Below, piece after piece: positions 12,301 through 48,167 of a DNA stretch of 64,000 nt. Position 1 is the stretch's first letter. Each line of letters opens with the position of its first letter. The stretch covers positions 21,516,001-21,580,000 of the forward strand of contig CM097885.1 in assembly GCA_044892525.1 (NCBI GenBank), read 5' to 3'. Position numbers and translations under genes: made by a program. The notes under the pieces are model-generated. The model did no database searches. It saw nothing but the letters and a program-made list of their open reading frames with translations, and was not told the origin of the DNA. The DNA is from Schmidtea polychroa (Eukaryota).

Positions 12301-14039
12301 ATTTTAATATTTATAATTTTCTATGTCTGTTTTCCATATTTAACTGTTTACTTGTTGTTTTTATCGTAATTTGAGTTTAACTCGACTTAATGCGATATCC
12401 CTTTTTGTGTTTTATTACCTACCTATTTCCACAAAATCATCACTATTATAATTTCATTTTATCTAATGTCAGTTTTGGAACAATAGTTCACTAAATTGGT
12501 TCTTCATAGTGTTGGGCTAGAACTGACTTCTAGACCCAAACTTGAATTGTGACTGAAAGGTGCAGGTACACAACATGCAAAAGCAAGACGTTTAGCTAAA
12601 TATTAAAATTACATCAAATAAACAATATTAACTAAAGGAGAAAGCAACAAAAACATAAACAAAGAAATTAAACAAAATTATACAAAAGCAAGAAGTGATG
12701 CAAAAATCTAACTCAAAAATAACCAAATAAACACAGAGTTACAAAAAACAGACTCGAATAACTTAAAAGACGATAAAAACAGTAAAACATTCCAGAAAAA
12801 CCCAGAACATTCTATAAAAATGGCGATGACCATCACAAAAGTCATCTAGAACAACAAAAGTTAAGGAAAATAAATAAATTAGTATTAAAAATAATAAATC
12901 TTTAAAAGAAATTCACAAAACATCAGTTAAAATAAAAATTAAATTAAAAATAAAATAGAATGTTCTGGAACCGTTCCAAATCCATCATGGACGGCAAATT
13001 AACGAAAAATAATTAAAAAATAAAAATATAAAAATAAAAACAAAAATTATGGCACAAAAATTGTCATTAAAAATAGCAAAATCGCTAAATAGAAAATTCT
13101 GGAATAAAAAGAATTCGAGTTTGTTTTAATGCATCAATACATACACGTGTACTAAATAGGTATATATACTGACACGTTTCAGTCACAATCAATCACTTTT
13201 ATGCCAAATTTTTGTGACGAAATTTCCAAAATCGATAGTAAGCATTGATCTTTATTTGTATATTAATTGTTTAATTATATAGATGGTATTTTAAATTTAT
13301 TTTTGCTTAAAATTTTTTGCGATGTATGAGTGATCAACGGCGTACTGGTATTCCTGCGTCGTTGTTCAGTCCTGCATCCAATTTATTAAAATCGTTATTA
13401 ACAGGACATGCAGACACGCATTATCATTATTATAGTGATATTTATTATATGATTTCTTTTTGTTCGGGTCAGCCGGAGGTCGAACTACTTCATGGTCCTG
13501 CCATGGAGTTAGGTCGAGGAAACCCTCCGCCTGACTCTTTGTATTTATTCAAGGTCAACCGTAAATGGTTGACTTAGCACACAACACTAAGGTTTGTAGA
13601 AGTGGTCACAGTGGGGCCATGGAAGCAATATTCTTCCCGACTTTCGTTTAATACACATGAAAAATCCACATTCAAAATCATAAACAACGACTCCACACTA
13701 AGGTCCTAAATTGAGTAGAGCTCATACCTAAACTTACACAATTCTGCAAGCACATTAATGTAGTTGGTTGATCAATAATAATATTTTGGTACACTTGGAC
13801 ATATGCCGAATTAGGTTTGGTAATAGGAGCCCATGGTAATTGGAATAATAGAAATGGTAAAATTCTTCGGCCTATGTCTAAGTAGAGCTTAAATTTGGAT
13901 AGACCTGTGAATAAATCACCGACTTAATGAACCCAACGTAAGGGAAAAAGTTATAAATTTAAAAGAATCCCGAATCTAAATTCTCACTGTAACATATTCC
14001 TAAAGGTATAAATAATTGATTATAACTTTTATAAATAAC

Positions 14040-14940
14040 TATAATAGCTTGGAGATAATTATATTGATAAATTATAGACCTAAAACCGTAAATTACTGAA
14101 TATAAAACTACCAACTATAAATTAAAAACTTAAATTTCTAAATTGTAGACTTTAAAAGTGTAAAGTATAATCATAAAGTCTAAAATACCGAATATAGTAT
14201 TATAAGTTATAAACTATACAACTATGGATCAAAAATCTAAACTGTAGATCATAAAAGGGCAAATCATAACGATGAAGTCTGAAATGTAAGAGCGTAAAAT
14301 GTGGAATATAAATTGTCAGCAAAAACTATATAATCATAAAGTAAAAATCTAAATTTCTAAATAGTAGACTATAATTGTATAAATCATAACCATTAAGTCG
14401 AAAACATAACGTCGTAAAATATTGAACAAAAAATTTAAACCATATAATCATAAATCAAGAATCCAAATTTCTAAATGGTAGACCATGAAACTATAAATCT
14501 GAAAATAGAAAATTAGGAAGTAAAAAATATAAAATGGTAAAATGTTAAATAAACAATTTATAAATTATAAAGTGTATGATGAGAACTTCTAAAGTATGAA
14601 TTTATAAACTGTAAGATAAAAAATTGAAAATCGTAGACGAAAACCTGTAAAGTGCAAAATGTAACCTTCGAACTCATAAAATATGAATCCCTAAATTGTG
14701 AAAGCCAAAATACGAATGGTAAAATATAAAGTTATATTATCACTATTATTATTAGTGTTGCCATTATCATTATTACTATTATTATTGCTATTATTGTTCT
14801 TATTGCTATCCTTATTGTTCTCATTATTATTATTATCATTATTGTTATTATGACTATTACTATTATTATTATTACCACTACGATCATTTGTTATCCTCGT
14901 TATCACCATTTTTACGGTTATGATCATAATTAGTATTACT
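14040..14940. repeat. LTR-internal degenerate ~110-bp repeats followed by an (ATT)n-like tract (also in the 3' LTR)
   Basis: aaatttctaaa.tgtagac...aatcataa units at ~14131, 14235, 14350 and 14465; decayed ATT repeats at 14730-14940. Confidence 0.65.
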
Positions 14941-15821
14941 TACTAGGAAAGCAAAAAATCAATTATTGATTTTTTCCCCATATCTAGATTTGGAGTCAAT
15001 TCTTTTGCCCAATAAAAACGTTCCTAACTGAAAATCTATATTTAGCAACACCCCCCCCCCCAGAGAAACCTTAAGGAAAAATTCAAGACGGGGCTATGAC
15101 AATCAAGAGTTTCCAGGAGATGGTGAGGATGACTCCGGCGAACCATGCAATTGAATAAATAAGCCATAATTCGCAGAGATTTACCTACATACAGAATACA
15201 AATATTCCCGAAAAATTTCCAATTTTCGGCGAGGGACAAATTGCGGGTCCAAATCAAATATTGGGCATGAAATGTCATTCCCTGGGAAGAACTATGGGAA
15301 GACTACTCCAAGCTAATATATTCCCCTTACTCGATCGAGGTTCCTAATGTTATCGCCTAAAAATTAAGGAAGTAAAAAAATCAAATAAATTACTTGCATG
15401 TAGAGCAAACCACTCATAACGAGCACAACCGAAGGAAAGGTAAGCAGACGAAGAGCTTAGTTCGTTGCTAGTACCTGTCGCCCCAGCGTGCCCGAATTTA
15501 GTGGCCTAAAAATGACGATCTAAAAAAATTCACATTTTATTAACATATAAATTAAAATTTATAAATAGTAATTAAAATTGCCACTCGGTGGTAAGCAGGA
15601 TTTTGAATGGAAATGATTGATTTAAACAAACGAATTTTGACGAAATTTTTTTTTTGTGTTTGTTTTGATAAAGTAGGAAATCTTATTCCACTGCTCCTAA
15701 GCTTATAGATGTTAGTCTTAAAATAAAATATTTTTTTAAAAGGGAAAAAGGGTCAACAAAATCTTGTGGTTGACGTCGTATCTCAATCAGCATAGAGGGG
15801 CTTGATTATTATTTTGTAGAA

Positions 15822-16187
15822 ATGTCCTACTCTGACAGCGATAGCCACGAAGAAGCCGACCGACAGATGCTTACCAGACTCCGTACACGGTACATATGGC
15901 ACCGTATCCATGATTGGAATCGGGGTTTGGACCTCGACAACTTTGGCCCAGTAATCAGGAGTGGGCCGGAGCCGGACGCTCCGGCGTGGGTAAAAACAGA
16001 GCCCACAAACGATTTTTTGCAAGAGGCCCGCGACCGAGCGGCCATCGAGGTAGAAGCAGCTCAGATGCGACTCAAGAAGATCGAGCTACAAATCCAAGCA
16101 GAAAAAGAGGGAAAAACCGTGGAGGACCTAGAAGAGGCCGAGGCAACCCCGCGGAAGAGGGGAAGGCCTCGCAAGCGACTGAACTGA
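15822..16187 (+). CDS. LTR-encoded 121-aa protein with a C-terminal AT-hook
   Basis: GC-richer ORF within the AT-rich LTR, ending PRKRGRPRKR (RGRP AT-hook core) after a short coiled coil; preceded by ttttgtag. Confidence 0.7.
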   Translation: MSYSDSDSHEEADRQMLTRLRTRYIWHRIHDWNRGLDLDNFGPVIRSGPEPDAPAWVKTEPTNDFLQEARDRAAIEVEAAQMRLKKIELQIQAEKEGKTVEDLEEAEATPRKRGRPRKRLN

Positions 16188-16396
16188 CTCGTCGTCAAAA
16201 TTTTGTTTTTGCAAATTAACATTCAGTTGCGATTTTATTAAACTTTGATTTTAGTGATAATTATTTCAGTCCTTTTAATAAATCATCTTGTGTATTGCGT
16301 GCTTAACATCCGAAACTATGTTTATTTATAATATTGATTTTATTTTATAATTGAATGAATAGTATGCTGCAAGAATATAATCGTTGAATTTATCTA

Positions 16397-16867
16397 GTGT
16401 TCAGACTATTGGAAAATCTGCGAAGAGATAGGGCAGAAGCTCAAAAACAGTCCGAGGAGCTCCGCATACGAGTAGACAAGCTCAAGGGACGGTGCCGGGA
16501 ACTAGAAAGCACCTGGTTTAGTCCCGAGGATATGAAAAAGAAGGTGGCGCAGGTCCTTCAACTGCAGTCTCAAGCCGCGCAGGATCAGATGGAGATCCGG
16601 GCACTGAAGCTCCAGCTCCGCGCGCTAGAAACCGAGCGAAATGAACAAGTAGTTCACGGAGCCGCCATAAGCCAAATCCGGCCGTTGACCGTGGAACTAG
16701 CAGCAATATACCCCCCGGCCGCGAAAGAGAAACCCAAAAGAAAGCGGTTAGGCCGAAATATTCGGGAAAAATTGAAGAAAGCTAGACTGGCCGAATACGA
16801 GCGACAAGCAAATTCGTCACTAGCAGCTGCGACGGAATTGGCCAGTCCTACCAATAAGCCTGTTTGA
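16397..16867 (+). CDS. LTR-encoded coiled-coil protein with a basic NLS-like patch (start uncertain)
   Basis: Heptad-rich helix and KPKRKRLGR; opens at an acceptor-like tctag and has no early ATG. Confidence 0.6.
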   Translation: MFRLLENLRRDRAEAQKQSEELRIRVDKLKGRCRELESTWFSPEDMKKKVAQVLQLQSQAAQDQMEIRALKLQLRALETERNEQVVHGAAISQIRPLTVELAAIYPPAAKEKPKRKRLGRNIREKLKKARLAEYERQANSSLAAATELASPTNKPV

Positions 16868-17272
16868 ACTTATATTCGGTTTTAGGCGTTTGTAGTATTT
16901 TTATGTATTGTGGTAGTCTTCAAATAATATGTTCCTTGTTAACATACTGCACGTTTTGTAGGGATAAAATAATGACTAGTACAGTTTATGATTGTCTGGG
17001 AAATGAGAGTTTGTGCATAAGATTGGGAAAACAATTTTGATAAAGGGACCTGAGAAATCGGACACACACCTCCTATCGGTAGTCCGTGAACCCACGGAGT
17101 ACTCGACAACTATAATGCTTTGATGCGCTCACTTTTTGCGAGTACTCAACCCTTGGTACAGTACCAACGTTGATCACTCAACGGGTACCAAGCGGAAAAA
17201 CAATGTTGTATTTTGGGTTACGCTGGTAACAGCACTCAATCATTCAACCACCAGTAACCCACCATACAAATT

Positions 17273-17290
17273 TGGGGGCTCAGCCGGGAT
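17273..17290 (+). promoter_or_regulatory. Primer-binding site complementary to the tRNA-Pro 3' end
   Basis: TGGGGGCTCAGCCGGGAT matches 16/18 of the classical tRNA-Pro PBS TGGGGGCTCGTCCGGGAT; it lies 8 nt downstream of the 5' LTR. Confidence 0.9.
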
Positions 17291-17989
17291 CTTGAAAATT
17301 TAATTGGTGAAAGAACCCGAGAATAGATATAATAGAGAGAGTAAAAGCGGATATAAAGTGATATGCATTCAAGACCGAGCAAGTTGTTTTCCCAAGCGCT
17401 TAAACTTAGTATATGGATATGCGAATATGATAAAATGTATGTAGAATGTCTAAATGAGTGATGGAAGTTTTAAAGTATGACGACATATGAATGTATTGAA
17501 AGTGGGTATGAGAATGCTGTACGAATAACTTAGTAATAGAATGAATGAGGATAAACGAAAATTAAAACGAAAACAAATTATAATAAAATTGTAGATAGCA
17601 ACGATTAATAAAATGTAAATATAAGGAAATAATAAAAATTTAAAAATAGGGAAAAGGGGGGATAGCACGCTAATAAAGATAGAACAAATAAACAATGAAA
17701 TTAAACTTAATCAGAAAACGTGTAAAATATGGCGATAAGGAATGGGATATGGGTTATATATAATTAAAACGATTGTAATAAAATCACAAGATCATGAAAG
17801 AAATGTGCGCGGAATAGAGCATTAAACAGAGGGAGACGGGGTTGTTAAGGGTAATAAGTAGAATGTAAAGGTTTATCGAAGCACTAATAAAATAAAGTAT
17901 TCTGGATATTAGGGGGAAAAACGATAAAGGGGGAAAAATGACGCGGAATATTAATAAAAAGAGAACCTTAATTAATAAATCTTACTTAG

Positions 17990-18472
17990 ATGGAATCAAC
18001 CGGCTACATTACAAAGAGACTCGGAAAATTCGTAGATTTAACACACAATTCGTTACAACGGCTAAATCGCAAAGCGGACCAGTTAATAAAAATCCAAGAT
18101 GAGATGAGCTTGAATCCAAGACCGCAAGCTGAGGAAATATGTATAATGATGAAAATAGCGACACCTAATGCAGAATTGACCACTAAAAGAGTTTATCAAC
18201 TTCAAAATTTACGATTAGATAATGCCAAATTTAACATCAAATGGCAGGAGATAATGATAAAAATGGAAACGATCGAGGAAGAAATTAAAGAAGCAATCGA
18301 ACATCAAGTTAAAGATTTTAGAAAATGCTTCATATGCAGAACCAATGAAATACGAGTAATGACGATTCCATGTGGTCATTTATGCTACTGCGAGAATTGC
18401 GCAGAGAAAATTAAACGATGCAACGTATGCGATACGAATGTTAGAGAGAAAATTGTAATATACCTCCCATAA
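17990..18472 (+). CDS. Coiled-coil plus C-terminal IAP-type C3HC4 RING protein (putative E3 ligase)
   Basis: CFIC...PCGHLCYCENC...CNVC at the C-terminus. Confidence 0.88.
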   Translation: MESTGYITKRLGKFVDLTHNSLQRLNRKADQLIKIQDEMSLNPRPQAEEICIMMKIATPNAELTTKRVYQLQNLRLDNAKFNIKWQEIMIKMETIEEEIKEAIEHQVKDFRKCFICRTNEIRVMTIPCGHLCYCENCAEKIKRCNVCDTNVREKIVIYLP

Positions 18473-19760: not shown

Positions 19761-19879
19761 TCAACTCAATTTAATCGCGGTAGGGACGATAGTAGGTGTT
19801 AAAACCGAAGGCGTCTGGGGGTTGAAGAAACCTCATTTAGGGCATTTGAAACCGGTCAGGGACCGAAGACCGCGAATAC

Positions 19880-21281: not shown

Positions 21282-24200
21282 ATGACAGACGGAATTCCAA
21301 ATGTAACAGGGCTAACGGACCCACCGGAAACAAGTAATGTGCACGTCAACATTGGAGAATTCAGAGAGAAATTTCGAGGAGAGCCATTCGATGGAAATAT
21401 AAACCAGCTGGAAACGTTTATAAAGGAATTCGAAGTATACATTACGATATGTCACTGGCCAGACATAGTCGTACGAGAACGAATACCCCTATATCTAAAG
21501 GGAAGCGCCCAAGATGTATACTTGGAGGCGAAATGTGATGCAACTAAGTTGAGAACGTGGAAAGAGATCAAAGAATTTTTAATAAAAACATTCGGTACCG
21601 AAAAAGAGGGAAATCGAAAAATGTTAGACTTTCTGCATCGAAAGCAGAAATATAACGAATCCAACGCACTGTACGCATGCGAATTGAGACGACTAGCACG
21701 AGAAGCCTTCGATTCAAATCAACCAGTTCCGGAAGACAAAATAATAGCCGTATTCGTAGATGGCATGAAACGAGAGGATATACGAGCAACCTTGGGATGC
21801 CGAGCACCAGAGACGCTGGAAGAAGCACTAAAAATCGCTAACAAATGTGAAACCTACTTAACACCAATACAAGTAGCAGCAATGACAGCAGCTCCAGCAG
21901 CTCCAGCGGCAACAGCAACAACCACAAACAACCAAGTCAATAATGCAAATCCAGTAATGAATCAATTCATCCCAGGATCGCAACAGTTGTTCAAAACTCC
22001 ACAAACAAGAAACCAAAACAATGGAGGTAATATTCAAAATTTTACTAATAATTTCAGGAACAACGACATCAACAATCGAACGTGCAACATATGCCAACGA
22101 CCAGGGCATTGGAGCAATGAATGTTATAAAGCAAGGATGTGTCAAAAGTGTGGGAGAAGAGGCCACACGGAAAATGTCTGCAGAGGACCCATGATGTCTA
22201 TGAGCAGAGGAGGAACCAGAACCTGCTACAATTGTAATCAGCCTGGACACATGGCAAGAGAATGCACGATGAGAACCAAACCAAATCAACCAGGATCAAA
22301 CAATCCAGTTCAGAACACACAAATCAACCTCATGCAGGAAATCGAACAATTAAAAGATATGATCCTGCGAATACCGACTAATAACCAACAACAACGAATC
22401 AACATGATGCAGAGCACCGAGGAAATCCGGAACCAACCAAGTAAGCAACAACAAGATCAGCAACGAGTCGAATGGCAAAGATTACAAAACGAGGAAGCCA
22501 GAGAAATTCAAGAAAGATGGAAACAACGGGAAGCGAATCCCGGAAGAATAAATATGATGAGATTAACAAATAAAGAGGAATCGCACACTGCGGAGCAGTG
22601 TGTTAACAACGACGGGAGTGAACCGATAATAAACAAGGAGATAAAAACGACAAAAGAAAATGAGATCGATCCACGAACAGAATTGAGCAGTGAAGAGAAA
22701 ATACAATTGATTAAAGAATTTACCAAAGAGGAGAAAGAAAGGAGACAAAAGAGAGATGAGAGTAAAGACGAACCAAAAAGCAATGAGATAGTTACAAAAA
22801 ATCGAATTCAGAGGGTACTACTACAAAAAATCGAAGACAGAATCAAAAACGAAAACCCTACATTAACTGAGGAACAAATAAAAGAAAAAGTGAAAGAGCA
22901 TTGGTTCAGGAAGAATGAGTGGTTTGAAAAGAAGGAACCACATACCAAAGCTAAAATAAACATGCTGAGACAAATGCGGAGCGATCAGACGGATCAGGAA
23001 GATGAGAAAAGTGAGGTGAGCAGCCTGGGAGGCGAATTATTTCAGTCAAGTGAGGAAAATAACGAACCGAAAACACCTCCAAACAGTGAAACACCTCAAA
23101 GTAGTGAGGAGAGTGAAAATGATGACATGAAATCAATGATAGAAAAAGATGAAGAAGAGATATTCGAGGAAATTCTCGACACAGTAACAGAAATAGAGCG
23201 AAATGAGAGCTACATCAACGAGTTAACATACAGAAAATGCTTAAAACTTATAACTCAAGTATACCAGTGTGAAGGAGGTATAATAACGGCAGCATGGAAA
23301 GATTTAGCAACAAAATATAAAGAGAAACTAAAGGAAGCAGGCCCAGATCAATATCAAGTAAGCATTCAACACCCCGAGATTCAGATACAGACTATCGAAT
23401 TAAAAGGAACAAATACCGATGAACTGTACAACTGGGTACAGGAAAAAATGGGAACGAGCCATAAAAATAAACAATTATATGTCGATGGTTACAAAGTTAA
23501 AATAGGCATACATTTGGTAGATGCGATGATATGGCCAAACGAAACTAACATCTTAACCTTAGAGAAAACCAGGGATGACGACTCGGTAGCAGAGATGTTC
23601 AAGAAAATCCAACAAGTGTTTAACAATGAAGTAGAACCAGAATTGGAAAAGATCGAACGAAAAATAATGAAAGAAAATCAAATAATCTTAGTCAAACAAG
23701 CTATCGATCAGACAAGGAAATACATTAATAGATTGAGAGAAAGATGGCCACAACTAATGAAACAATTTGTTAAAGACGTACGAGACACGGAAATTATGAG
23801 ATTCGAAGACAAACGAGCGACAGAATTGATATCTAAATACGGAGAATACGAGAGAACCAAATGCGAGCATGAAACGATAAAAATAAAGGTGAAGTTGCCA
23901 AATGAAGAGAAACAAATAATAGAAGTTAATCCCGATTGCCAAGTTGACGAGTTAGTGCAAATCATAGATCAAGAGATCATCCAAAAAGCTCGAGAAAATA
24001 GTGAGGATGGAATGATCGAAGATGTGATAATAATGTACAACCGGCACATGCTAGAAAGAGGAGACCGAACTGTAATTTACGAACTAGGAATCTGGGAAAA
24101 TGGAGCCGTCATCAATATAATCGCGATGGATGAACCATCTGGTGGGCATAAAAACGCCACGAAAACCGAGCAACAAATTAAAAGATTCCAATGGGGAATG

Positions 24201-35496: not shown

Positions 35497-35952
35497 ATGA
35501 ACCAGAGAAACGAAGAGCAAGAACACCCAAATGGGATACCACATATTGTTGAAGTAAGAGAACAGCCGCTTATGAATGTACATCCAGTAGACATGATGGA
35601 AATGAACGTGCCAAACCAGCCGAGTCAGCCAACAGGATCCATGTGGAGGGCACAGTGTGAATTAATGACCCAATTGACAAATCAGACTCAAGAGCACTGG
35701 GTACGAAACCAAACGGCGTTGATAGAGAGTATTAATAGAAATGCAATATATATTACAAAAATAGAGGAACAACACCAAATAATCGCGCAACTAGAGTATA
35801 ATAACAATCAGTTAATAAGCCAAATCAGATGGCAAGCGGAAGAAATTAGAAGGTTGCATGAAAATCGACAACATGATGATATTACCAGTTTAGTCGAGTG
35901 GATGACCGGGTTACCAGGAACAGGGGAACCGGACTCGACGGTAGATGTGTAG
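35497..35952 (+). CDS. Accessory 151-aa coiled-coil protein, unknown function
   Basis: Intact ORF with the element's codon bias and cassette-type flanking motifs. Confidence 0.7.
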   Translation: MNQRNEEQEHPNGIPHIVEVREQPLMNVHPVDMMEMNVPNQPSQPTGSMWRAQCELMTQLTNQTQEHWVRNQTALIESINRNAIYITKIEEQHQIIAQLEYNNNQLISQIRWQAEEIRRLHENRQHDDITSLVEWMTGLPGTGEPDSTVDV

Positions 35953-38867: not shown

Positions 38868-40466
38868 ATGAATAAAGAATCACAAACCTATGTGGAAACC
38901 GAGATGCAACAACTCGAACAGTACAAATCCATCATACAAACATACGAAGCAGAAAGAGTAAAGAGAGAAATAGAAATGTACAAAACCATGTATGAGAAAA
39001 AGCAACAAGAATTAGAAGCGGAGAAGGCGGAAGCACTAGCAACAAAGGAGGAGTGGATGAAACAGGTAGAGGAATTAACCGAGGATGTGAGAAATACCTC
39101 AACATACCAAGAATTGGAGGAAGAGCTCTCGAATTTACGAACTCAGCGGATTATGGAGATAGTTGGGTTATGCGGAGAGATAATAATGCAGAAGGCACAA
39201 ATTAGGGAAGCAAAGGAGCAATACGAGGAGGAACAGCGTAAAACGGAACGAATAAAACTACAAGCGCAACAATGGAAACTAAAGTACGAAACCCTCCAGA
39301 CAAGGCAGAATGATAGTCACGAACATCAAATACGGAATTACAAGGCCGAACTAGAAGAAGTAAAGGGCAAATGCGCAATGATGAAAGAAAAATGGGAAAG
39401 ATGCAAAAAGACCCTAAACGAAGTCAGAGGGCAAGGGAGGAGAACACCGCATAGAGAACCAATTGTTAGAGATAACGTATTAGAGCGAATTAACACACAA
39501 ATAAAGATACAAGCCCAGAAATGGAAGTATAAATACCGAGGAAGTCAAACTCAAGTGCTATATTGGAAAATCAGTAGCAAGGAACAACTGCGATTACGAA
39601 AAGCAGACCAAGAATTTTACGAAACAAGAGCTGCACAGCGAGAAGAAGAGGAAGTAGAGTGGAGAAAACGACAGCAGAAAACTGAGGAAACCGAAAAGTG
39701 TCTCAAGCATCAAGCCCGAAAATGGAAAAAGAATTGGAAAGAGACCAAAGAGGAGTTAAGACAGTTACCAATAAAACTGATGGAAAGAGACGAATTTAAA
39801 ATATGGGAAACGATAGAAAACCAAAAAGATGAGATCAGCCGATTGAGTAGAGAACATAGAATCAAGACGCGGATCAGCGACGGTAGACAGAGAATCATAA
39901 AGAAACAGACTCGAGAAATAAGAAGGTATGAATTCCAGGAAAAGAGATGGGAACAACAATTGACAGACCAAGATCGACAGATCCGACAATTACAAACTGA
40001 AGTGGAAGAAGCCAATCAAGAGATGAACGGATATAAAGGTATGTACACCCAAAGGGATGTGAATTGGAAGCACCAGATTGAGCTTAATGCGAAATATAGA
40101 GAGGAGTGCGACAAGACAATTCAACAAACCAAACAGGAAACCGAGATAATAAAACGATGCTTCGAAGAAAATGAAGCAAATTTGAGAGCGGAAATTGAGA
40201 AACTAAAAACGCTCGAAAGAACCCAACGATTGGAAGAGGAATTAAACGAAATGATAGAAAACGAAGGTAGATTAACGTTTTTATTGGATGAGGAAATAAA
40301 CATCTCAACGGAACTACGAGAGGAAATAGATCGGTTAAGGAGACAACCACCAATATTATTAATGCCACTCTACCCGTTCCCGTTGCAAGTGCCACAGCCT
40401 GCCGAAGTCACCACAGATGAAGGCTTCGATGAAAATAACGAACAAAATAACGCAACATGGATTTAG
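38868..40466 (+). CDS. Accessory 532-aa long coiled-coil protein
   Basis: E/K/Q/R heptads throughout, a repeated QA.KWK motif and a Pro-rich C-terminus. Confidence 0.8.
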   Translation: MNKESQTYVETEMQQLEQYKSIIQTYEAERVKREIEMYKTMYEKKQQELEAEKAEALATKEEWMKQVEELTEDVRNTSTYQELEEELSNLRTQRIMEIVGLCGEIIMQKAQIREAKEQYEEEQRKTERIKLQAQQWKLKYETLQTRQNDSHEHQIRNYKAELEEVKGKCAMMKEKWERCKKTLNEVRGQGRRTPHREPIVRDNVLERINTQIKIQAQKWKYKYRGSQTQVLYWKISSKEQLRLRKADQEFYETRAAQREEEEVEWRKRQQKTEETEKCLKHQARKWKKNWKETKEELRQLPIKLMERDEFKIWETIENQKDEISRLSREHRIKTRISDGRQRIIKKQTREIRRYEFQEKRWEQQLTDQDRQIRQLQTEVEEANQEMNGYKGMYTQRDVNWKHQIELNAKYREECDKTIQQTKQETEIIKRCFEENEANLRAEIEKLKTLERTQRLEEELNEMIENEGRLTFLLDEEINISTELREEIDRLRRQPPILLMPLYPFPLQVPQPAEVTTDEGFDENNEQNNATWI

Positions 40467-40498
40467 TCGAAGGGAGATGTTGCCTGTAAATAAGAATG

Positions 40499-40544
<46 letters not shown>
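40499..40544 (+). repeat. 46-nt poly(A) tract between accessory ORFs
   Basis: Pure A run starting 33 nt after the stop at 40466. Confidence 0.9.
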
Positions 40545-40546: not shown

Positions 40547-40629
40547 AAAACCAAATAAAAATTACAAAACCAAAAAATTCAGAATAAAAAGAAGACAAAA
40601 GGAAATATGATATGTATATTTTTGTAGAT

Positions 40630-41397
40630 ATGAATTATTTAAAAGAAAGAGAATCAACGAGTAACGAAGGAAAGTCAAACGACCAACCTGAACAAAACCA
40701 GGATATGATACCAATCAAACAAGAACCGATGAAATATTATAGCAATAAATGGAGAGTCAGCAAGAAGTTGTTCAAATTAAAGATTGCAAATCAAAATGTA
40801 GAGATTACGAGATTGAGGCAGCATATTGTTCAATCAAGACGATTAATAAACACTGTCAAACAAGAAATTTTGAGGGAAATAAAGGAATCGAAACGAAAAG
40901 AGACAGAAAATAAAAACCTGAGACAAGAGATAGTAGAGTTGAGAGCTCAGGCAGTAATCGAAGATTATTGGAAATCAGAAACAAGGAAGTTGAAAAAGAT
41001 TGTGAATATCGACCAAGTCTATATCGAGCAGTTAGAAGCACAATATGCTTATGCAAAAACAAGAGTGCGAGAAAGTAAAAAAGTCGAGAAGAGAAATGTA
41101 AAACTCAAGGAAGAGATCAAGGAACAAAGAGAGGAAACAGAAAAACAATGGAAGTTGAAAGAAAATTACCGGAGAATCTTAAATCAAAAACGACGAAGCA
41201 TGCAAGCATTGCAGACGGCAATAACCATCAAGCAGAGAAAATGGAAAAGTAAAGAGAAGCAATTACAAGAAATACCAGAATTAAAGAGACAGTTGATAGC
41301 AACGCAACTCGAAGTAATAAGAATGAACGAGTTGAGCAAAAGACGAGCACCTGAACCTCCCGTAAAATTAAGGGATGAGGTCGGTGGCTCCCAATAA
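40630..41397 (+). CDS. Accessory coiled-coil protein (probable start 40630), probable paralogue of 38868-40466
   Basis: ORF 40612-41397; the second ATG follows ttttgtag; KW..IANQNVEITRL resembles KW..IENQKDEISRL. Confidence 0.75.
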   Translation: MNYLKERESTSNEGKSNDQPEQNQDMIPIKQEPMKYYSNKWRVSKKLFKLKIANQNVEITRLRQHIVQSRRLINTVKQEILREIKESKRKETENKNLRQEIVELRAQAVIEDYWKSETRKLKKIVNIDQVYIEQLEAQYAYAKTRVRESKKVEKRNVKLKEEIKEQREETEKQWKLKENYRRILNQKRRSMQALQTAITIKQRKWKSKEKQLQEIPELKRQLIATQLEVIRMNELSKRRAPEPPVKLRDEVGGSQ

Positions 41398-41473
41398 ATG
41401 AGACAAAATAACCGTGTAAATAAATTGTAAATAAAGCCAAGTAATTATTATTAACATATATGTATATGTAAAG

Positions 41474-42460
41474 ATGAGAAGCCTAATCGTGATGATGATT
41501 ATAATGACAATGCCAAAAATCCTGCAAGCAGAAGAATCAATGATCAGATGCCAGAAAGAATACCCATATCGCAGAGAAGATAGTACATGTAGTAGCTTTA
41601 AATCGATCTGCGAAAAACCCAATGAGGAATGCGAACAAATCAAGTTACAATGTTCGCAATGTCCACAAACAACTGAAAGTTCGACGGAAGTGCAAATGGC
41701 TCAGACAATAAAAACAATGTTAGAACAAGAAATGAAAGTTATCAGAACCCAGATAGCAACATTAGCCAAACAATGTCAAAGTCAGAAATCAAAGAGAGAA
41801 TCCCAAACAGATCCAGCCGCAATGAGAATGATGGTAATAATATTAGAGGAAATAAAACAACAGGTAACAGCAACCGCCTATGGACGTTCAAGCAATTGCG
41901 AAACAGTAGTAAAATCTTTGGAGGAAATGAAAGGAAAAATAACTTCCATCATCAAAGAGGAACCCAGCATTAAAAATGAGGTAACGAAAACCTTGAAAGA
42001 AATGACAAGGGAAATCCTAACTACCATAAACAAAAACCCAACGAACTCCGAGAAGATGATTAAAACCCTTGAGGCAATAAAGAAAGTTGTCACCTCAGAA
42101 GAAAACAAATTCAATAAGCCCGAAAAATCAGAAACGGCGGATACAACCCAATTAAAAGAAATTATGAACAAACCCAAAGTAATAGAACCGAGAGAGTCTG
42201 AATCCCTCACAATATTGATCCTATTAGCGGCGAGCCTAATGATAAACATCACCGTACTGAGCCTGATTGCACTCAAACCCAATTCCAGTAAAGAAAGAAA
42301 CAAAACCCTCAAACTAAAGGAACAATCAAGAAGTATTCGTATCCCAATGGAAGAACAGCTAGTCCAAACAACGAACCAACCAAGCTACTTCAAATCTTCC
42401 CCAAACATTGAAACCAGAGCCGTCATCGAGACGAGATCCCGAACAACCGAATTTTATTAA
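41474..42460 (+). CDS. Accessory type I membrane protein (signal peptide, 6-Cys head, helical stalk, TM)
   Basis: N-terminal MRSLIVMMIIMTMPKILQA; Cys cluster; three K[ST]L.E[MI] helical repeats; TM LTILILLAASLMINITVLSLIAL. Confidence 0.8.
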   Translation: MRSLIVMMIIMTMPKILQAEESMIRCQKEYPYRREDSTCSSFKSICEKPNEECEQIKLQCSQCPQTTESSTEVQMAQTIKTMLEQEMKVIRTQIATLAKQCQSQKSKRESQTDPAAMRMMVIILEEIKQQVTATAYGRSSNCETVVKSLEEMKGKITSIIKEEPSIKNEVTKTLKEMTREILTTINKNPTNSEKMIKTLEAIKKVVTSEENKFNKPEKSETADTTQLKEIMNKPKVIEPRESESLTILILLAASLMINITVLSLIALKPNSSKERNKTLKLKEQSRSIRIPMEEQLVQTTNQPSYFKSSPNIETRAVIETRSRTTEFY

Positions 42461-45400
42461 TGTGACATCACGACAGTATAAACATTTCATGACATTATAA
42501 AACATTATCAAACAATCATGATTTCAAAGACTGAGACTGATTATGACTAATAACATTGATTCTTGAGCATGATAATTTTATTTTTGTGTGGACCGACCTC
42601 GGTCGTTCTTTTTCTTCATCTTTCAACCCATCCGTAGAATGTAGTATAATAGTAGCCTTTTTATGTATGTGGGTATTGAGGTCACGACCCTGTAGCTCGT
42701 AGACCCAATTTGCATGTAGGCACTTGTAATATAGTGCAAGTATTCTGAAAAATAATTTTCTTCATCTTGTGATTTAAATTGCGGGTCGCAATTTTATGGG
42801 CCCCCGAGTGTTTTATGTTGGGCTAGAACTGACTTCTAGACCCAAACTTGAATTGTGACTGAAAGGTGCAGGTACACAACATGCAAAAGCAAGACGTTTA
42901 GCTAAATATTAAAATTACATCAAATAAACAATATTAACTAAAGGAGAAAGCAACAAAAACATAAACAAAGAAATTAAACAAAATTATACAAAAGCAAGAA
43001 GTGATGCAAAAATCTAACTCAAAAATAACCAAATAAACACAGAGTTACAAAAAACAGACTCGAATAACTTAAAAGACGATAAAAACAGTAAAACATTCCA
43101 GAAAAACCCAGAACATTCTATAAAAATGGCGATGACCATCACAAAAGTCATCTAGAACAACAAAAGTTAAGGAAAATAAATAAATTAGTATTAAAAATAA
43201 TAAATCTTTAAAAGAAATTCACAAAACATCAGTTAAAATAAAAATTAAATTAAAAATAAAATAGAATGTTCTGGAACCGTTCCAAATCCATCATGGACGG
43301 CAAATTAACGAAAAATAATTAAAAAATAAAAATATAAAAATAAAAACAAAAATTATGGCACAAAAATTGTCATTAAAAATAGCAAAATCGCTAAATAGAA
43401 AATTCTGGAATAAAAAGAATTCGAGTTTGTTTTAATGCATCAATACATACACGTGTACTAAATAGGTATATATACTGACACGTTTCAGTCACAATCAATC
43501 ACTTTTATGCCAAATTTTTGTGACGAAATTTCCAAAATCGATAGTAAGCATTGATCTTTATTTGTATATTAATTGTTTAATTATATAGATGGTATTTTAA
43601 ATTTATTTTTGCTTAAAATTTTTTGCGATGTATGAGTGATCAACGGCGTACTGGTATTCCTGCGTCGTTGTTCAGTCCTGCATCCAATTTATTAAAATCG
43701 TTATTAACAGGACATGCAGACACGCATTATCATTATTATAGTGATATTTATTATATGATTTCTTTTTGTTCGGGTCAGCCGGAGGTCGAACTACTTCATG
43801 GTCCTGCCATGGAGTTAGGTCGAGGAAACCCTCCGCCTGACTCTTTGTATTTATTCAAGGTCAACCGTAAATGGTTGACTTAGCACACAACACTAAGGTT
43901 TGTAGAAGTGGTCACAGTGGGGCCATGGAAGCAATATTCTTCCCGACTTTCGTTTAATACACATGAAAAATCCACATTCAAAATCATAAACAACGACTCC
44001 ACACTAAGGTCCTAAATTGAGTAGAGCTCATACCTAAACTTACACAATTCTGCAAGCACATTAATGTAGTTGGTTGATCAATAATAATATTTTGGTACAC
44101 TTGGACATATGCCGAATTAGGTTTGGTAATAGGAGCCCATGGTAATTGGAATAATAGAAATGGTAAAATTCTTCGGCCTATGTCTAAGTAGAGCTTAAAT
44201 TTGGATAGACCTGTGAATAAATCACCGACTTAATGAACCCAACGTAAGGGAAAAAGTTATAAATTTAAAAGAATCCCGAATCTAAATTCTCACTGTAACA
44301 TATTCCTAAAGGTATAAATAATTGATTATAACTTTTATAAATAACTATAATAGCTTGGAGATAATTATATTGATAAATTATAGACCTAAAACCGTAAATT
44401 ACTGAATATAAAACTACCAACTATAAATTAAAAACTTAAATTTCTAAATTGTAGACTTTAAAAGTGTAAAGTATAATCATAAAGTCTAAAATACCGAATA
44501 TAGTATTATAAGTTATAAACTATACAACTATGGATCAAAAATCTAAACTGTAGATCATAAAAGGGCAAATCATAACGATGAAGTCTGAAATGTAAGAGCG
44601 TAAAATGTGGAATATAAATTGTCAGCAAAAACTATATAATCATAAAGTAAAAATCTAAATTTCTAAATAGTAGACTATAATTGTATAAATCATAACCATT
44701 AAGTCGAAAACATAACGTCGTAAAATATTGAACAAAAAATTTAAACCATATAATCATAAATCAAGAATCCAAATTTCTAAATGGTAGACCATGAAACTAT
44801 AAATCTGAAAATAGAAAATTAGGAAGTAAAAAATATAAAATGGTAAAATGTTAAATAAACAATTTATAAATTATAAAGTGTATGATGAGAACTTCTAAAG
44901 TATGAATTTATAAACTGTAAGATAAAAAATTGAAAATCGTAGACGAAAACCTGTAAAGTGCAAAATGTAACCTTCGAACTCATAAAATATGAATCCCTAA
45001 ATTGTGAAAGCCAAAATACGAATGGTAAAATATAAAGTTATATTATCACTATTATTATTAGTGTTGCCATTATCATTATTACTATTATTATTGCTATTAT
45101 TGTTCTTATTGCTATCCTTATTGTTCTCATTATTATTATTATCATTATTGTTATTATGACTATTACTATTATTATTATTACCACTACGATCATTTGTTAT
45201 CCTCGTTATCACCATTTTTACGGTTATGATCATAATTAGTATTACTTACTAGGAAAGCAAAAAATCAATTATTGATTTTTTCCCCATATCTAGATTTGGA
45301 GTCAATTCTTTTGCCCAATAAAAACGTTCCTAACTGAAAATCTATATTTAGCAACACCCCCCCCCCCAGAGAAACCTTAAGGAAAAATTCAAGACGGGGC

Positions 45401-46127
45401 TATGACAATCAAGAGTTTCCAGGAGATGGTGAGGATGACTCCGGCGAACCATGCAATTGAATAAATAAGCCATAATTCGCAGAGATTTACCTACATACAG
45501 AATACAAATATTCCCGAAAAATTTCCAATTTTCGGCGAGGGACAAATTGCGGGTCCAAATCAAATATTGGGCATGAAATGTCATTCCCTGGGAAGAACTA
45601 TGGGAAGACTACTCCAAGCTAATATATTCCCCTTACTCGATCGAGGTTCCTAATGTTATCGCCTAAAAATTAAGGAAGTAAAAAAATCAAATAAATTACT
45701 TGCATGTAGAGCAAACCACTCATAACGAGCACAACCGAAGGAAAGGTAAGCAGACGAAGAGCTTAGTTCGTTGCTAGTACCTGTCGCCCCAGCGTGCCCG
45801 AATTTAGTGGCCTAAAAATGACGATCTAAAAAAATTCACATTTTATTAACATATAAATTAAAATTTATAAATAGTAATTAAAATTGCCACTCGGTGGTAA
45901 GCAGGATTTTGAATGGAAATGATTGATTTAAACAAACGAATTTTGACGAAATTTTTTTTTTGTGTTTGTTTTGATAAAGTAGGAAATCTTATTCCACTGC
46001 TCCTAAGCTTATAGATGTTAGTCTTAAAATAAAATATTTTTTTAAAAGGGAAAAAGGGTCAACAAAATCTTGTGGTTGACGTCGTATCTCAATCAGCATA
46101 GAGGGGCTTGATTATTATTTTGTAGAA

Positions 46128-46493
46128 ATGTCCTACTCTGACAGCGATAGCCACGAAGAAGCCGACCGACAGATGCTTACCAGACTCCGTACACGGTACA
46201 TATGGCACCGTATCCATGATTGGAATCGGGGTTTGGACCTCGACAACTTTGGCCCAGTAATCAGGAGTGGGCCGGAGCCGGACGCTCCGGCGTGGGTAAA
46301 AACAGAGCCCACAAACGATTTTTTGCAAGAGGCCCGCGACCGAGCGGCCATCGAGGTAGAAGCAGCTCAGATGCGACTCAAGAAGATCGAGCTACAAATC
46401 CAAGCAGAAAAAGAGGGAAAAACCGTGGAGGACCTAGAAGAGGCCGAGGCAACCCCGCGGAAGAGGGGAAGGCCTCGCAAGCGACTGAACTGA
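46128..46493 (+). CDS. 3' LTR copy of the AT-hook ORF
   Basis: Translation identical to 15822-16187. Confidence 0.7.
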   Translation: MSYSDSDSHEEADRQMLTRLRTRYIWHRIHDWNRGLDLDNFGPVIRSGPEPDAPAWVKTEPTNDFLQEARDRAAIEVEAAQMRLKKIELQIQAEKEGKTVEDLEEAEATPRKRGRPRKRLN

Positions 46494-46702
46494 CTCGTCG
46501 TCAAAATTTTGTTTTTGCAAATTAACATTCAGTTGCGATTTTATTAAACTTTGATTTTAGTGATAATTATTTCAGTCCTTTTAATAAATCATCTTGTGTA
46601 TTGCGTGCTTAACATCCGAAACTATGTTTATTTATAATATTGATTTTATTTTATAATTGAATGAATAGTATGCTGCAAGAATATAATCGTTGAATTTATC
46701 TA

Positions 46703-47173
46703 GTGTTCAGACTATTGGAAAATCTGCGAAGAGATAGGGCAGAAGCTCAAAAACAGTCCGAGGAGCTCCGCATACGAGTAGACAAGCTCAAGGGACGGTG
46801 CCGGGAACTAGAAAGCACCTGGTTTAGTCCCGAGGATATGAAAAAGAAGGTGGCGCAGGTCCTTCAACTGCAGTCTCAAGCCGCGCAGGATCAGATGGAG
46901 ATCCGGGCACTGAAGCTCCAGCTCCGCGCGCTAGAAACCGAGCGAAATGAACAAGTAGTTCACGGAGCCGCCATAAGCCAAATCCGGCCGTTGACCGTGG
47001 AACTAGCAGCAATATACCCCCCGGCCGCGAAAGAGAAACCCAAAAGAAAGCGGTTAGGCCGAAATATTCGGGAAAAATTGAAGAAAGCTAGACTGGCCGA
47101 ATACGAGCGACAAGCAAATTCGTCACTAGCAGCTGCGACGGAATTGGCCAGTCCTACCAATAAGCCTGTTTGA
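46703..47173 (+). CDS. 3' LTR copy of the coiled-coil ORF
   Basis: Translation identical to 16397-16867. Confidence 0.6.
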   Translation: MFRLLENLRRDRAEAQKQSEELRIRVDKLKGRCRELESTWFSPEDMKKKVAQVLQLQSQAAQDQMEIRALKLQLRALETERNEQVVHGAAISQIRPLTVELAAIYPPAAKEKPKRKRLGRNIREKLKKARLAEYERQANSSLAAATELASPTNKPV

Positions 47174-48167
47174 ACTTATATTCGGTTTTAGGCGTTTGTA
47201 GTATTTTTATGTATTGTGGTAGTCTTCAAATAATATGTTCCTTGTTAACATACTGCACGTTTTGTAGGGATAAAATAATGACTAGTACAGTTTATGATTG
47301 TCTGGGAAATGAGAGTTTGTGCATAAGATTGGGAAAACAATTTTGATAAAGGGACCTGAGAAATCGGACACACACCTCCTATCGGTAGTCCGTGAACCCA
47401 CGGAGTACTCGACAACTATAGTGCTTTGATGCGCTCACTTTTTGCGAGTACTCAACCCTTGGTACAGTACCAACGTTGATCACTCAACGGGTACCAAGCG
47501 GAAAAACAATGTTGTATTTTGGGTTACGCTGGTAACAGCACTCAATCATTCAACCACCAGTAACCCACCAATAGTCATTGCACAATTTCAAAATCTTTAC
47601 TCAATTTAAAGCATTAGCAATTCAAATTTCTACCAATCAAACTGTATATTAAACAATTGCACATCTGGTCGCTGAAACGAATTTTTTACCATTTTTATTT
47701 CGATATAAATTTTCAATAGGACCAACGTAAAGCTAGAAGGCAGGCGAATGCAGATAGACAAAGGCCAAGGAGACAAAACGTGAAACAAACGGCAAGCTCA
47801 AAGGAAAACTGAAACTGTGGATGAGTATTATGCCAGATTGGAAGCTTAACAGAGAAGAAACACGAAACTCAAACTGAATAGCCGATGGATTAAAATCTTC
47901 AATTAAGTGCTGCCCAAAATTTTCACTTTCATTTCATACGTAACTATATTCAATTTCTTTGCTAAATATAATATTCTAAAATATTTTATAAATATTTTTA
48001 AGTATATTTTATTAGATTAATCAAGCAATTTTAAAATATACTTATTTGATTAAAACTTTCAAGAAATTTTAATAAAAATATGAAAGATAATTTGTTTAAA
48101 TAATACAAGAATACTAAAAATCTTTCATATATTTTTAAAATAATTTTAATTTCAAAAATTTTAATTC

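Follow-up and report, generated by a model that had tools for sequence, protein, structure and literature searches.

The window, the whole 64,000-nt stretch of DNA analysed here, contains a 35,061 bp LTR element at positions 12510-47570 (Table 1). Its two LTRs align over 4,755 nt with one mismatch and no gaps, the sole difference being A at 17115 versus G at 47421, and they start with TGTTGG and end with CCACCA. The same four bases, ATAG, flank both ends of the element, with unique sequence on one side and an old repeat on the other. Each LTR also contains three small ORFs, of 83, 121 and 111 aa. The primer-binding site begins 8 nt past the 5' LTR, and its 18 nt are perfectly complementary to the 3' terminus, with CCA added, of a tRNA-Pro(TGG) gene in the same genome; at all six of the other-copy junctions listed, the match reaches 23 nt. 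No purine-rich tract of the classical polypurine type was found directly upstream of the 3' LTR. The leader contains a 131-bp tandem repeat at 19876-20190.

The internal region carries a single polyprotein ORF in the order Gag, MATH, Bcl-2-like (weak), class III fusogen, PR-RT-RH-IN, ankyrin and C-terminal membrane domain. The LTRs, target-site duplication, primer-binding site and unbroken 14-kb ORF together confirm the complete giant Ty3/gypsy-type element of the original prediction. Across the polyprotein and the accessory ORFs, Pfam matches comprise CCHC, Retrotrans_gag, MATH, Monjiviricetes_fusion, PR, RT, RNase H, integrase, ankyrin, zf-TRAF with MATH, BIR with RING, and RING. More specifically, Gag matches both Retrotrans_gag and Ty3_capsid, and the best solved match of RT-RH-IN is the Ty3 Gag-Pol (7q5b, E 4.5e-116, query residues 3-710 of 751), with caulimovirus and retrovirus enzymes ranking behind it. 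The earlier reading of the cargo as IAP, Bcl-2, ankyrin and RING is borne out by Pfam for IAP, RING and ankyrin, whereas Bcl-2 gave no Pfam match in the polyprotein at E<=0.5. A single-sequence search of the Bcl-2-like region against solved structures returned Bcl-xL in 30 of 30 matches (E 0.9-2), and a five-sequence profile returned Bcl-xL or Bcl-2 in all 60 matches listed (E 8e-4 to 5e-3); the predicted structure of this region has low pLDDT. This weak but consistent similarity points to a putative Bcl-2-like module in the polyprotein.

Seven accessory ORFs lie in the internal region, all on the + strand. The original prediction had the strand right, and its count of nine was approximate, the tally being seven internal ORFs plus three small ones per LTR. 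The RING of the 160-aa ORF is 36% identical to that of the IAP ORF, and the MATH domain of the polyprotein is 33% identical to that of the TRAF ORF. A conserved gene-end word stands 17-19 nt past six stop codons and is followed in one case by an encoded poly(A) tract.

Table 1. Features of the LTR element (window coordinates; aa numbers within the polyprotein refer to its 4,688-aa ORF)
Feature	Position	Strand	Basis or remark
Left target-site duplication, ATAG	12506..12509	+	directly precedes 5' LTR
5' LTR, 4,755 bp, TG...CA ends	12510..17264	+	1 mismatch vs 3' LTR
Small ORFs inside 5' LTR	13326-13577, 15822-16187, 16532-16867	+	ORF list
Primer-binding site, 18 nt, TGGGGGCTCAGCCGGGAT	17273..17290	+	complementary to tRNA-Pro(UGG) 3' end plus CCA
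Accessory ORF, 160 aa, C-terminal IAP-type RING finger	17990..18472	+	zf-C3HC4_3 E 3.5e-12
Leader, 2.8 kb, without + strand ORF of at least 80 aa	18473..21281	+	ORF list
Single polyprotein ORF, 4,688 aa	21282..35348	+	ORF list, Pfam
Gag: Ty3-type capsid aa 35-193, CCHC zinc knuckles aa 266-329	21282..22301	+	Pfam
MATH/TRAF-C domain, aa 1080-1224	24519..24953	+	Pfam E 4e-29
Putative Bcl-2-like BH1-BH2 region (weak), ~aa 1650-1760, GGW at 1741-1743	26229..26561	+	profile search vs solved structures
Env: signal-like segment aa 1788-1800, predicted class III gB/chuvirus-type fusion ectodomain, anchor aa 2367-2385	26637..28436	+	Pfam, model
Retroviral-type aspartic protease, aa 2603-2691	29088..29354	+	Pfam
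Reverse transcriptase, RNase H, integrase, aa 2916-3546	30027..31919	+	Pfam, structure match
Ankyrin repeats, aa 3872-3959	32895..33158	+	Pfam
C-terminal membrane domain: hydrophobic aa 4190-4208, Cys-/sequon-rich part, anchor aa 4578-4596	33849..35069	+	topology prediction
Accessory ORF, 151 aa, no family	35497..35952	+	open in 19/19 other copies
TRAF homologue, 474 aa: RING and TRAF zinc fingers, coiled coil, MATH	36042..37466	+	Pfam; open at 90/90 scored loci
IAP homologue, 392 aa: BIR and C-terminal RING	37607..38785	+	Pfam; open in 19/19 other copies
Accessory ORF, 532 aa, charged, helical-looking, no family	38868..40466	+	open in 18/19 other copies
Gene-end word TGTAAATAA then, 5 nt on, encoded A46 tract (40499-40544)	40485..40544	+	sequence
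Accessory ORF, 261 aa, no family	40612..41397	+	open in 18/19 other copies
Accessory ORF, 328 aa, hydrophobic N-terminus, membrane segment ~aa 242-269, no family	41474..42460	+	open in 19/19 other copies
3' LTR, 4,755 bp	42816..47570	+	LTR alignment
Right target-site duplication, ATAG	47571..47574	+	directly after 3' LTR

With high confidence, we regard 12510-47570 as a Burro (also GYPSM1) family copy whose structure is intact and whose insertion is very recent, the family being assigned from the published layout. These giant Ty3/gypsy-type, env-bearing endogenous retrovirus-like elements were described from the planarian Schmidtea mediterranea (Burro-1 to -4/GYPSM1: Jurka 2007 and Grohme et al. 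2018, as cited in PMC6431247). Section 7 of PMC6431247 (Arkhipova & Yushenova 2019) describes a Gag bearing three CCHC knuckles, MATH_TRAF_C, a motif resembling Ubi2/SUMO, BCL2, an env placed in frame between gag and pol, PR, a motif resembling dUTPase, RT, RH, IN, ankyrin, BIR and accessory ORFs, and puts forward Burro elements as integrated proviruses that interfere with apoptosis and ubiquitination. The present element shares the total length above 30 kb, multi-kb LTRs, internal region of ~25 kb and thousands of copies. It likewise has one giant ORF running from Gag (three CCHC) through MATH_TRAF_C, the BCL2-like part and in-frame env to PR-RT-RH-IN and ankyrin, as well as BIR, RING and coiled-coil (Smc-like) parts among its accessory ORFs. 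Its ORF1 has 4,688 aa against the 4,873 aa published for Burro1/GYPSM1, and Pfam at E<=0.5 gave no match for the dUTPase-like or the SUMO-like motif of the published account. The guess that this is a Burro element thus fits both the published layout and the 1,319 candidate loci found with an RT probe, while the suggestion that its gene-level architecture might be undescribed falls to that same section 7. Because family and gene layout are already in print, the observation is real but not new. In the accessible parts of the published accounts of these elements, we found no mention of the tRNA-Pro primer, the gene-end word with its encoded poly(A), paired hydrophobic segments in the polyprotein or mosaic recombination among copies. 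For BURRO1, the available text of PMC8532177 reports RNA in intestinal cells by FISH, which rises after smedwi-2 RNAi, and no alleviation of the phenotype of smedwi-2(RNAi) by BURRO1 RNAi or RT inhibitors.

Env matches the Pfam family Monjiviricetes_fusion (E 9e-68), and a search of 1.84 billion representatives yields 990 relatives at E<=1e-3. The nearest of these are embedded in proteins of 1,300-3,243 aa, and the next are free-standing proteins of ~650 aa with 21-29% identity. An AF2 model with pLDDT >90 over most of the ectodomain gave 114 Foldseek matches to the PDB at E<=1e-3; those listed are all herpesvirus gB (best 7k1s_A, E 1e-13). Against BFVD, chuvirus-like glycoproteins rank highest, with E 2.5e-39 to 1e-33. 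The predicted fold is therefore clearly that of a class III fusogen of the herpesvirus gB / chuvirus G type, whereas PMC6431247 linked the Burro env to the gypsy Env (F type) by HHpred. Of the "envelope genes" anticipated earlier, this one stands as a solid fusogen but the plural is not borne out: no viral relatives were detectable for either the C-terminal membrane domain or the 328-aa membrane ORF.

According to the available part of PMC13524379 (eLife 2026), flatworm elements bear only gB-type ENV in the order GAG-ENV-POL. The gB-type errantiviruses of Platyhelminthes, Nematoda and Bryozoa described there resemble the present element in their Ty3/gypsy pol, their HSV-gB-like class III Env between gag and pol, and several near-identical intact copies. 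No mention of death/signalling modules or a 7-kb accessory array, as seen here, was found for them in that part, and the words Schmidtea, planarian and Burro are absent from the main text. Mosquito BEL/Pao and insect gypsy elements with Chuviridae-like glycoproteins (available part of Dezordi et al. 2020, PMC7642597) are likewise LTR retroelements that acquired a Jingchuvirales-type class III glycoprotein; unlike here, they involve another retroelement superfamily and host phylum, with env as a separate ORF and no apoptosis/TRAF cargo reported in that part.

In the predicted topology, hydrophobic segments are paired around both presumed luminal parts of the polyprotein, which suggests a membrane-threaded protein. 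The long ORF product would pass in and out of the ER membrane, the two presumed luminal parts each flanked by a signal-like segment on one side and a stop-transfer anchor on the other; signal peptidase and the element's own protease would do the cutting. The hydrophobic stretch that follows the Bcl-2-like part may then double as the tail anchor of that part and as the Env signal peptide. Spliced RNA is the usual source of env expression in retroviruses and errantiviruses, which favours a rather unlikely alternative, namely that Env comes from a spliced subgenomic mRNA starting at Met aa 1786, as in ordinary retroviruses, its in-frame position being incidental. A methionine does stand directly before the Env hydrophobic segment. 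However, the frame is open through gag-env-pol here, with no stop gains in six of six other copies, and the paired segments fit co-translational threading of a polyprotein. No splice joint is seen in contigs over 17265-37264, but as these are not confirmed to be RNA they hardly bear on the question.

Within the host genome, which comprises 781 Mb and includes four very large contigs, the 2-kb RT probe scored 99-100% identity at all 40 of its candidate loci that were scored, and a 7.4-kb cargo probe found 662 candidates, of which the 20 scored are 98-100% identical. The cargo is present in 19 of 19 other copies compared, with 112 of 114 cargo ORFs open, although these were the best-scoring copies and intactness is thus biased upward. 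The TRAF ORF is open at 90 of 90 scored loci, and 60 loci besides the window's own score the same as the self-match, pointing to a recent burst of copying. Individual copies differ by 14-43 substitutions per 7.4 kb, with private indels and block-wise mosaicism in which env blocks are 3-4% apart, and three of six other polyprotein copies carry a 1-bp indel.

Substitution patterns indicate that purifying selection acts on env, gag, pol and most cargo. In six other copies, the polyprotein has 81 nonsynonymous (N) versus 220 synonymous (S) differences (pN/pS about 0.095), with N:S of 7:64 for env (pN/pS 0.03), 1:47 for RT-RH, 1:13 for gag and 5:20 for the Bcl-2-like part. Cargo variant sites number 43 N versus 47 S (pN/pS 0.20 for singletons, 0.26 for shared variants), including TRAF 3:8, IAP 6:8 and the 261-aa ORF 7:12. 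The cargo is family-wide and evolves at a pN/pS of ~0.2; the proviso that it might occur only in this copy or drift neutrally therefore fails.

We consider it very unlikely that the element is strictly intracellular, with Env and the death/signalling modules as functionless passengers of a copying burst. Such a reading draws on the little or no constraint seen in the small six-copy sample for MATH (12 N : 9 S), ankyrin (4:1) and the C-terminal domain (5:4), on a pN/pS of ~0.5 for the 532-aa ORF, and on copies so young that little decay would be expected anyway. Against it, the env ratio holds across the diverged blocks, so that this divergence must have accrued under selection on a replicating lineage, and the TRAF, IAP, 261-aa and Bcl-2-like ratios lie far below neutrality. 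Furthermore, non-coding spacers of the cargo region are ~3x as variable as its coding DNA (38 of 969 versus 89 of 6,432 nt), and relatives in other hosts retain env within long polyproteins. Least probable is that the copy's perfection (one LTR mismatch, open ORFs) is partly an assembly artefact: polishing in a family of thousands could homogenise sequences, the scored RT loci are near-identical, 61 loci including the window's share one TRAF score, and the longest contig from public runs (8.7 kb, in X8) does not span the element, but the substitutions, private indels and block patterns between copies argue against wholesale homogenisation, and the distinct flanks with their clean 4-bp duplication speak against an artefact.

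The selected, env-bearing Burro element would copy itself by tRNA-Pro-primed reverse transcription followed by integrase-mediated insertion, and Env may let it pass from cell to cell or from animal to animal. The TRAF, IAP, RING, MATH, Bcl-2-like and ankyrin modules may help the producing cell to survive or dampen that cell's signalling. Large DNA viruses, among them baculoviruses, herpesviruses and poxviruses, encode IAPs or Bcl-2-like proteins that are presumed to keep infected cells alive. The element resembles them in carrying a BIR-RING IAP and a putative Bcl-2-like module; the difference from these DNA viruses is that the carrier here is a reverse-transcribing LTR element, into whose polyprotein the genes are partly fused.

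The 35,061-bp element, with 25,551 bp between its long terminal repeats (LTRs), is real, intact and young, and is very probably a member of the already described Burro/GYPSM1 family of giant planarian LTR retroelements, whose published layout it matches. To our knowledge, no LTR retroelements larger than Burro elements have been described, and few others combine a viral fusogen with apoptosis and TRAF-type signalling genes. They make up a sizeable share of the genome of a major regeneration model. The two LTRs start with TGTTGG and end with CCACCA (TG...CA), their single difference is an A at 17115 against a G at 47421, and a copy of the target-site duplication ATAG lies at either end of the element. 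The primer-binding site (PBS) is the exact complement of the 3' end plus CCA of tRNA-Pro(TGG), genes for which are found elsewhere in the same genome (ARAGORN, Rfam), and in six other copies the complementarity to tRNA-Pro reaches 23 nt. Rfam matched no family within the 64-kb window, and no polypurine tract was found directly 5' of the 3' LTR, the 46 nt preceding 42816 showing no purine richness; the element may have a tract of unusual composition or position.

The interior is A-rich on the plus strand (A 0.41, T 0.20), with a higher G+C content than the flanks. Along this strand, a 160-aa ORF comes first, then a leader of 2.8 kb that is poor in ORFs; the polyprotein ORF of 4,688 aa lies next, and six more ORFs of 151-532 aa follow. 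Between the RING ORF and gag, the leader holds a 131-bp unit repeated 2.4 times with 98% matches (19876-20190). The LTRs, target-site duplication, PBS and unbroken ORF of about 14 kb in the original prediction are all borne out by these features, and its count of nine accessory ORFs was approximate, with seven on the plus strand of the interior and three small ones in each LTR.

Features of the element with their coordinates. N:S, nonsynonymous to synonymous variants, counted in 19 other copies for the downstream ORFs and in 6 other copies for the polyprotein parts, some module counts being small; per-ORF pN/pS of the downstream ORFs was calculated from N, S and site numbers.
Feature	Window (nt)	Polyprotein (aa)	Description	N:S	pN/pS
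Element	12510-47570		+ strand		
LTRs	12510-17264, 42816-47570		direct repeats, 4,755 nt each, 1 mismatch, 0 gaps (window self-comparison)		
PBS	17273-17290		TGGGGGCTCAGCCGGGAT, 8 nt inside 5' LTR, 18/18 nt complementary to tRNA-Pro(TGG) + CCA		
160-aa ORF	17990-18472		RING		
Polyprotein	21282-35348		4,688 aa		
Gag		35-193	Retrotrans_gag / Ty3_capsid, plus three CCHC knuckles (Pfam)	1:13	
MATH		1080-1224	Pfam E 4e-29	12:9	
Bcl-2-like				5:20	
Monjiviricetes_fusion			polyprotein, Pfam E 9e-68		
Env				7:64	
Aspartic protease		2603-2691	then RT, RNase H, integrase (Pfam)		
RT-RH				1:47	
Ankyrin repeats		3872-3959	Pfam	4:1	
C-terminal part				5:4	
151-aa ORF	35497-35952			2:3	0.16
TRAF ORF	36042-37466			3:8	0.09
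IAP ORF	37607-38785			6:8	0.19
532-aa ORF	38868-40466			9:4	0.52
261-aa ORF	40612-41397			7:12	0.13
328-aa ORF	41474-42460			16:12	0.34

The polyprotein shows the PR-RT-RH-IN order of Ty3/gypsy (Metaviridae) elements in Pfam. Among solved structures, its RT-RH-IN region best matches Ty3 Gag-Pol (7q5b, E 4.5e-116), with caulimovirus and retrovirus enzymes scoring far lower. The accessory ORFs add a set of signalling domains. The 160-aa ORF encodes an IAP-type RING with 36% identity to the RING of the IAP ORF, which itself carries a BIR (E 9e-16) and a C-terminal RING (E 3e-12) in Pfam, matches NAIP, XIAP and cIAP, and by this predicted domain pair belongs to the IAP family. The TRAF ORF contains zf-TRAF and MATH domains (Pfam); its RING-zinc finger part resembles TRAF6 (E 8e-10) and its MATH domain TRAF5/1/3/2 (E 1e-16 to 8e-20). 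Its predicted architecture, an N-terminal RING and TRAF zinc fingers, a coiled coil and a C-terminal MATH domain, is that of a full TRAF homologue. The MATH domains of the polyprotein and the TRAF ORF share 33% identity. No Pfam family was found in two charged ORFs, the 151-aa ORF or the 328-aa membrane protein.

We compared this organization with that of the published family. In S. mediterranea, Burro/GYPSM1 elements exceed 30 kb in total, with up to 25 kb of internal sequence and thousands of copies; their 4,873-aa ORF1 comprises Gag with three CCHC, MATH_TRAF_C, SUMO-like and BCL2 parts and an in-frame env, followed by PR, a dUTPase-like motif, RT, RH, IN and ankyrin, and the accessory parts are BIR, RING and Smc-like (Arkhipova & Yushenova 2019, PMC6431247). 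The S. polychroa element likewise exceeds 30 kb with an interior of about 25 kb, is represented by at least 1,319 (RT probe), 662 (cargo probe, covering the downstream accessory ORFs) and 1,909 (TRAF query) candidate loci, which are lower bounds and not copy numbers, and likewise encodes Gag, MATH, a probable BCL2-like part (weakly supported), an in-frame env, pol, ankyrin, and BIR/RING ORFs. The guess that it is a Burro element therefore fits in size, interior and giant-ORF plus BIR/RING layout, and the suggestion that its gene-level architecture might be undescribed falls away because the same layout is already published (PMC6431247). An eLife 2026 article (PMC13524379) further describes flatworm 'errantiviruses' with gB-type ENV only, in GAG-ENV-POL order; taken together with the 2019 layout, this means that the original prediction drew the right picture, but one already in print. 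Burro elements have been hypothesized to be integrated proviruses that interfere with apoptosis and ubiquitination (PMC6431247), and Li et al. 2021 (PMC8532177) report BURRO1 RNA in intestinal cells, increased after smedwi-2 RNAi. Beyond the published accounts, our analysis adds the tRNA-Pro primer, selection figures, mosaic blocks, paired hydrophobic segments and a gene-end word, some of which supplements and Grohme 2018 may cover. Concrete handles for RNA and protein work come from the tRNA-Pro primer, the putative punctuation at gene ends and the proposed topology, all of which leave the kind of element unchanged.

For the envelope protein (Env), HMMER was run exhaustively over 1.84 billion representatives and found 990 relatives at E<=1e-3, of which 477 reach E<=1e-10 and 42 reach E<=1e-30; a word-based search returned 2 matches only, and cluster names gave no further information. 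The nearest relatives lie within proteins of 1,300-3,243 aa, and the next are free-standing proteins of about 650 aa with 21-29% identity. An AlphaFold2 model of aa 1585-2450, built on a 72-sequence alignment, shows an ectodomain with pLDDT >90 over most of its length, behind which lies a membrane anchor (transmembrane segment aa 2367-2385). Foldseek against the PDB returned herpesvirus gB throughout the matches listed, the best being VZV gB (7k1s_A, E 1e-13), with 114 matches at E<=1e-3 over 620-660 aligned columns; against predicted viral structures, the top matches were chuvirus-like glycoproteins (E 2.5e-39 to ~1e-33). The TM-scores of these matches are modest (0.26-0.48), in keeping with a difference in conformation. 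Based on the gB and chuvirus-like matches, the modelled Env belongs to the class III fusogens of Jingchuvirales type and is encoded in frame between gag and pol. This predicted fold refines the 2019 account, which linked the protein to gypsy Env.

The polyprotein probably also contains a Bcl-2-like module. Pfam gave no match to this region at E<=0.5. Against solved structures, the region alone matched Bcl-xL in 30 of 30 cases (E 0.9-2), over the BH2 motif only. A GGW motif lies just 5' of env in 4 of the 13 long relatives inspected, and a profile of these four GGW-bearing relatives plus the window sequence (n=5, GGW being invariant across all five) matched Bcl-xL/Bcl-2 in all 60 PDB matches listed, over BH1-BH2 and with E 8e-4 to 5e-3. 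The region is modelled as helical with pLDDT 40-65, and a search of the ESM Atlas with it gave no usable match.

Hydrophobic segments of the polyprotein occur in two pairs. The first, a short signal-like segment (aa 1788-1800) and the anchor of Env, brackets the Env ectodomain, and the second (4190-4208 and 4578-4596) brackets a Cys- and sequon-rich C-terminal part. From these paired segments we infer a putative membrane-threaded precursor, which may resemble that of flaviviruses. Such threading would keep Gag, MATH, the Bcl-2-like part, PR-RT-RH-IN and ankyrin all on one side of the membrane, and the segment behind the Bcl-2-like part could serve at once as the tail anchor of that domain and the signal peptide of Env. 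For the C-terminal part, two word-based searches (protein lengths 277-882 and 2,578-8,204) found no relatives at E<=1e-3, and the ESM Atlas search yielded no usable match. Its single-sequence AF2 model has a mean pLDDT of 49 and is confident only over aa 4426-4515, a generic Ig-like beta-sandwich whose best Z of 9.0 is within the background range.

To assess conservation, other copies were compared across the 781-Mb host genome, whose assembly has four very large contigs (272, 190, 145 and 93 Mb) and carries the window on contig C1. The best 40 scored loci for the 2-kb RT probe are 99-100% identical, and the best 20 scored for the 7.4-kb cargo probe are 98-100% identical. With the TRAF protein query, 90 of 90 scored candidates are open; 60 of them, not counting that of the window, equal the self-match score. 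Across 19 other copies, the cargo ORFs are open in 112 of 114 cases, both exceptions being stop gains. Relative to the window codons, cargo variant sites comprise 43 nonsynonymous and 47 synonymous changes, singletons giving a pN/pS of 0.20 and shared variants one of 0.26. Like those for the polyprotein, these figures come from the best-scoring, near-identical loci, in which assembly polishing could have homogenised repeats. The cargo is thus neither confined to this copy nor neutral, in line with the original prediction. Variable positions in the cargo regions amount to 38 of 969 in the spacers versus 89 of 6,432 in the ORFs.

The polyprotein was followed in six other copies; three contain an indel of 1 bp within the ORF, and stop gains are absent from all six. 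Its 81 nonsynonymous and 220 synonymous variants give an overall pN/pS of 0.095. As a whole, the analysis supports maintenance by selection of env, gag and pol and of the majority of cargo genes. Differences in the polyprotein are arranged in blocks: a 25.8-28.8 kb block, 3-4% from the window, is common to two copies, another at 30.0-30.6 kb is also common to two copies, and at 30.6-31.2 kb, 22-25 sites separate the window from all six. The clustered blocks 3-4% apart indicate that env has been kept intact across that divergence. Such block mosaicism is what recombination between co-replicating lineages would be expected to produce, and recombination among copies strengthens the published idea that Burro acts as a virus rather than a plain transposon.

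The downstream ORFs are separated by spacers with a recurrent motif. Behind the polyprotein and each of the next five ORFs, in all six spacers (35365-41434), TGTA[AT]A[TA]A[AGT] starts 17, 18, 17, 18, 19 and 18 nt past the stop codon. The window holds 8 instances of the exact word TGTAAATAA versus 2.56 expected, six of them within these spacers. At each of the five spacers covered, 18 or 19 of the 19 copies retain a word of the general form. At the gene starts, AG falls within 5 nt preceding the ATG in 6 of 8 ORFs (background 0.34, binomial P 0.02). Judged from these positions, the word reads as putative polyadenylation-type gene-end punctuation. In the spacer of the 532-aa ORF, it is followed by 5 nt and an encoded A46 (40499-40544), and of the 19 other copies, 14 have 13-148 A at this junction. 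The A46 looks like a reverse-transcribed poly(A) tail, possibly the trace of capture from polyadenylated RNA.

A further reading, which we consider rather unlikely, is that the 7-kb 3' region forms an operon-like array of retro-captured cassettes with their own punctuation, together with a membrane-threaded polyprotein. Transcripts would then be cleaved and polyadenylated at each gene end and spliced at each gene start, and this splicing might be spliced-leader trans-splicing, which has been described in S. mediterranea (PMC12582326). If true, the retroelement would express its accessory genes through the operon-resolving machinery of the host. Contigs from four public runs (X1, X2, X3 and X8), none recorded as RNA, were aligned over 17265-37264, and no joint was listed among them. 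One X1 contig of low depth (2.2) connects 33606 to 37040 through 31 other letters, and may represent a family derivative with a deletion.

The gene-end word is absent from the LTR ORFs, and two of these were rejected as genes: a 111-aa ORF that is open in 8 of 8 copies, yet shows 6 nonsynonymous to 6 synonymous variants, and a 121-aa ORF covered in 1 copy only. In the LTR region 45900-47570, 7 of 8 other copies (loci L042-L049) have about 440-465 nt less sequence ahead of the 111-aa ORF than the window, so LTR length varies within the family.

The insertion site and the remaining parts of the window were also inspected. An assembly search with both flanks found no allele without the insertion. 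On the left, 11900-12509 is an old dispersed repeat (199 candidate loci at 69-83% identity); the right flank, 47571-48200, consists of essentially unique sequence. A 24-nt pattern of the tRNA-Pro T-arm and acceptor has 2,283 matches genome-wide at <=1 mismatch. As Burro junctions, 2,275 PBS-pattern matches were rejected, most being tRNA-Pro genes in 475-bp arrays; long tandem arrays of this kind, bearing tRNA-Pro(TGG) genes, lie on C1 at ~130.90-130.95 Mb and 133.14-133.16 Mb (loci L026-L029). Beyond the element, a (CCTCTTCCTT)n microsatellite occupies 48993-49435 with 44 units. This repeat has all six frames open and accounts for the ORFs called at this place and for the strongly negative GC skew. 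An AT-rich satellite block occupies 59410-63003, with (TTA)n at 59779-60159 and 60748-61010, an array of ~90-bp period at 61185-62379, and (TAT)n at 62778-63003. On the minus strand, a 111-aa open frame at 8797-9132 weakly matches CPSF_A / WD beta-propeller (E 6.6e-6, under the Pfam cut-off) and could be one of the exons of a host gene whose intron region hosts the element.
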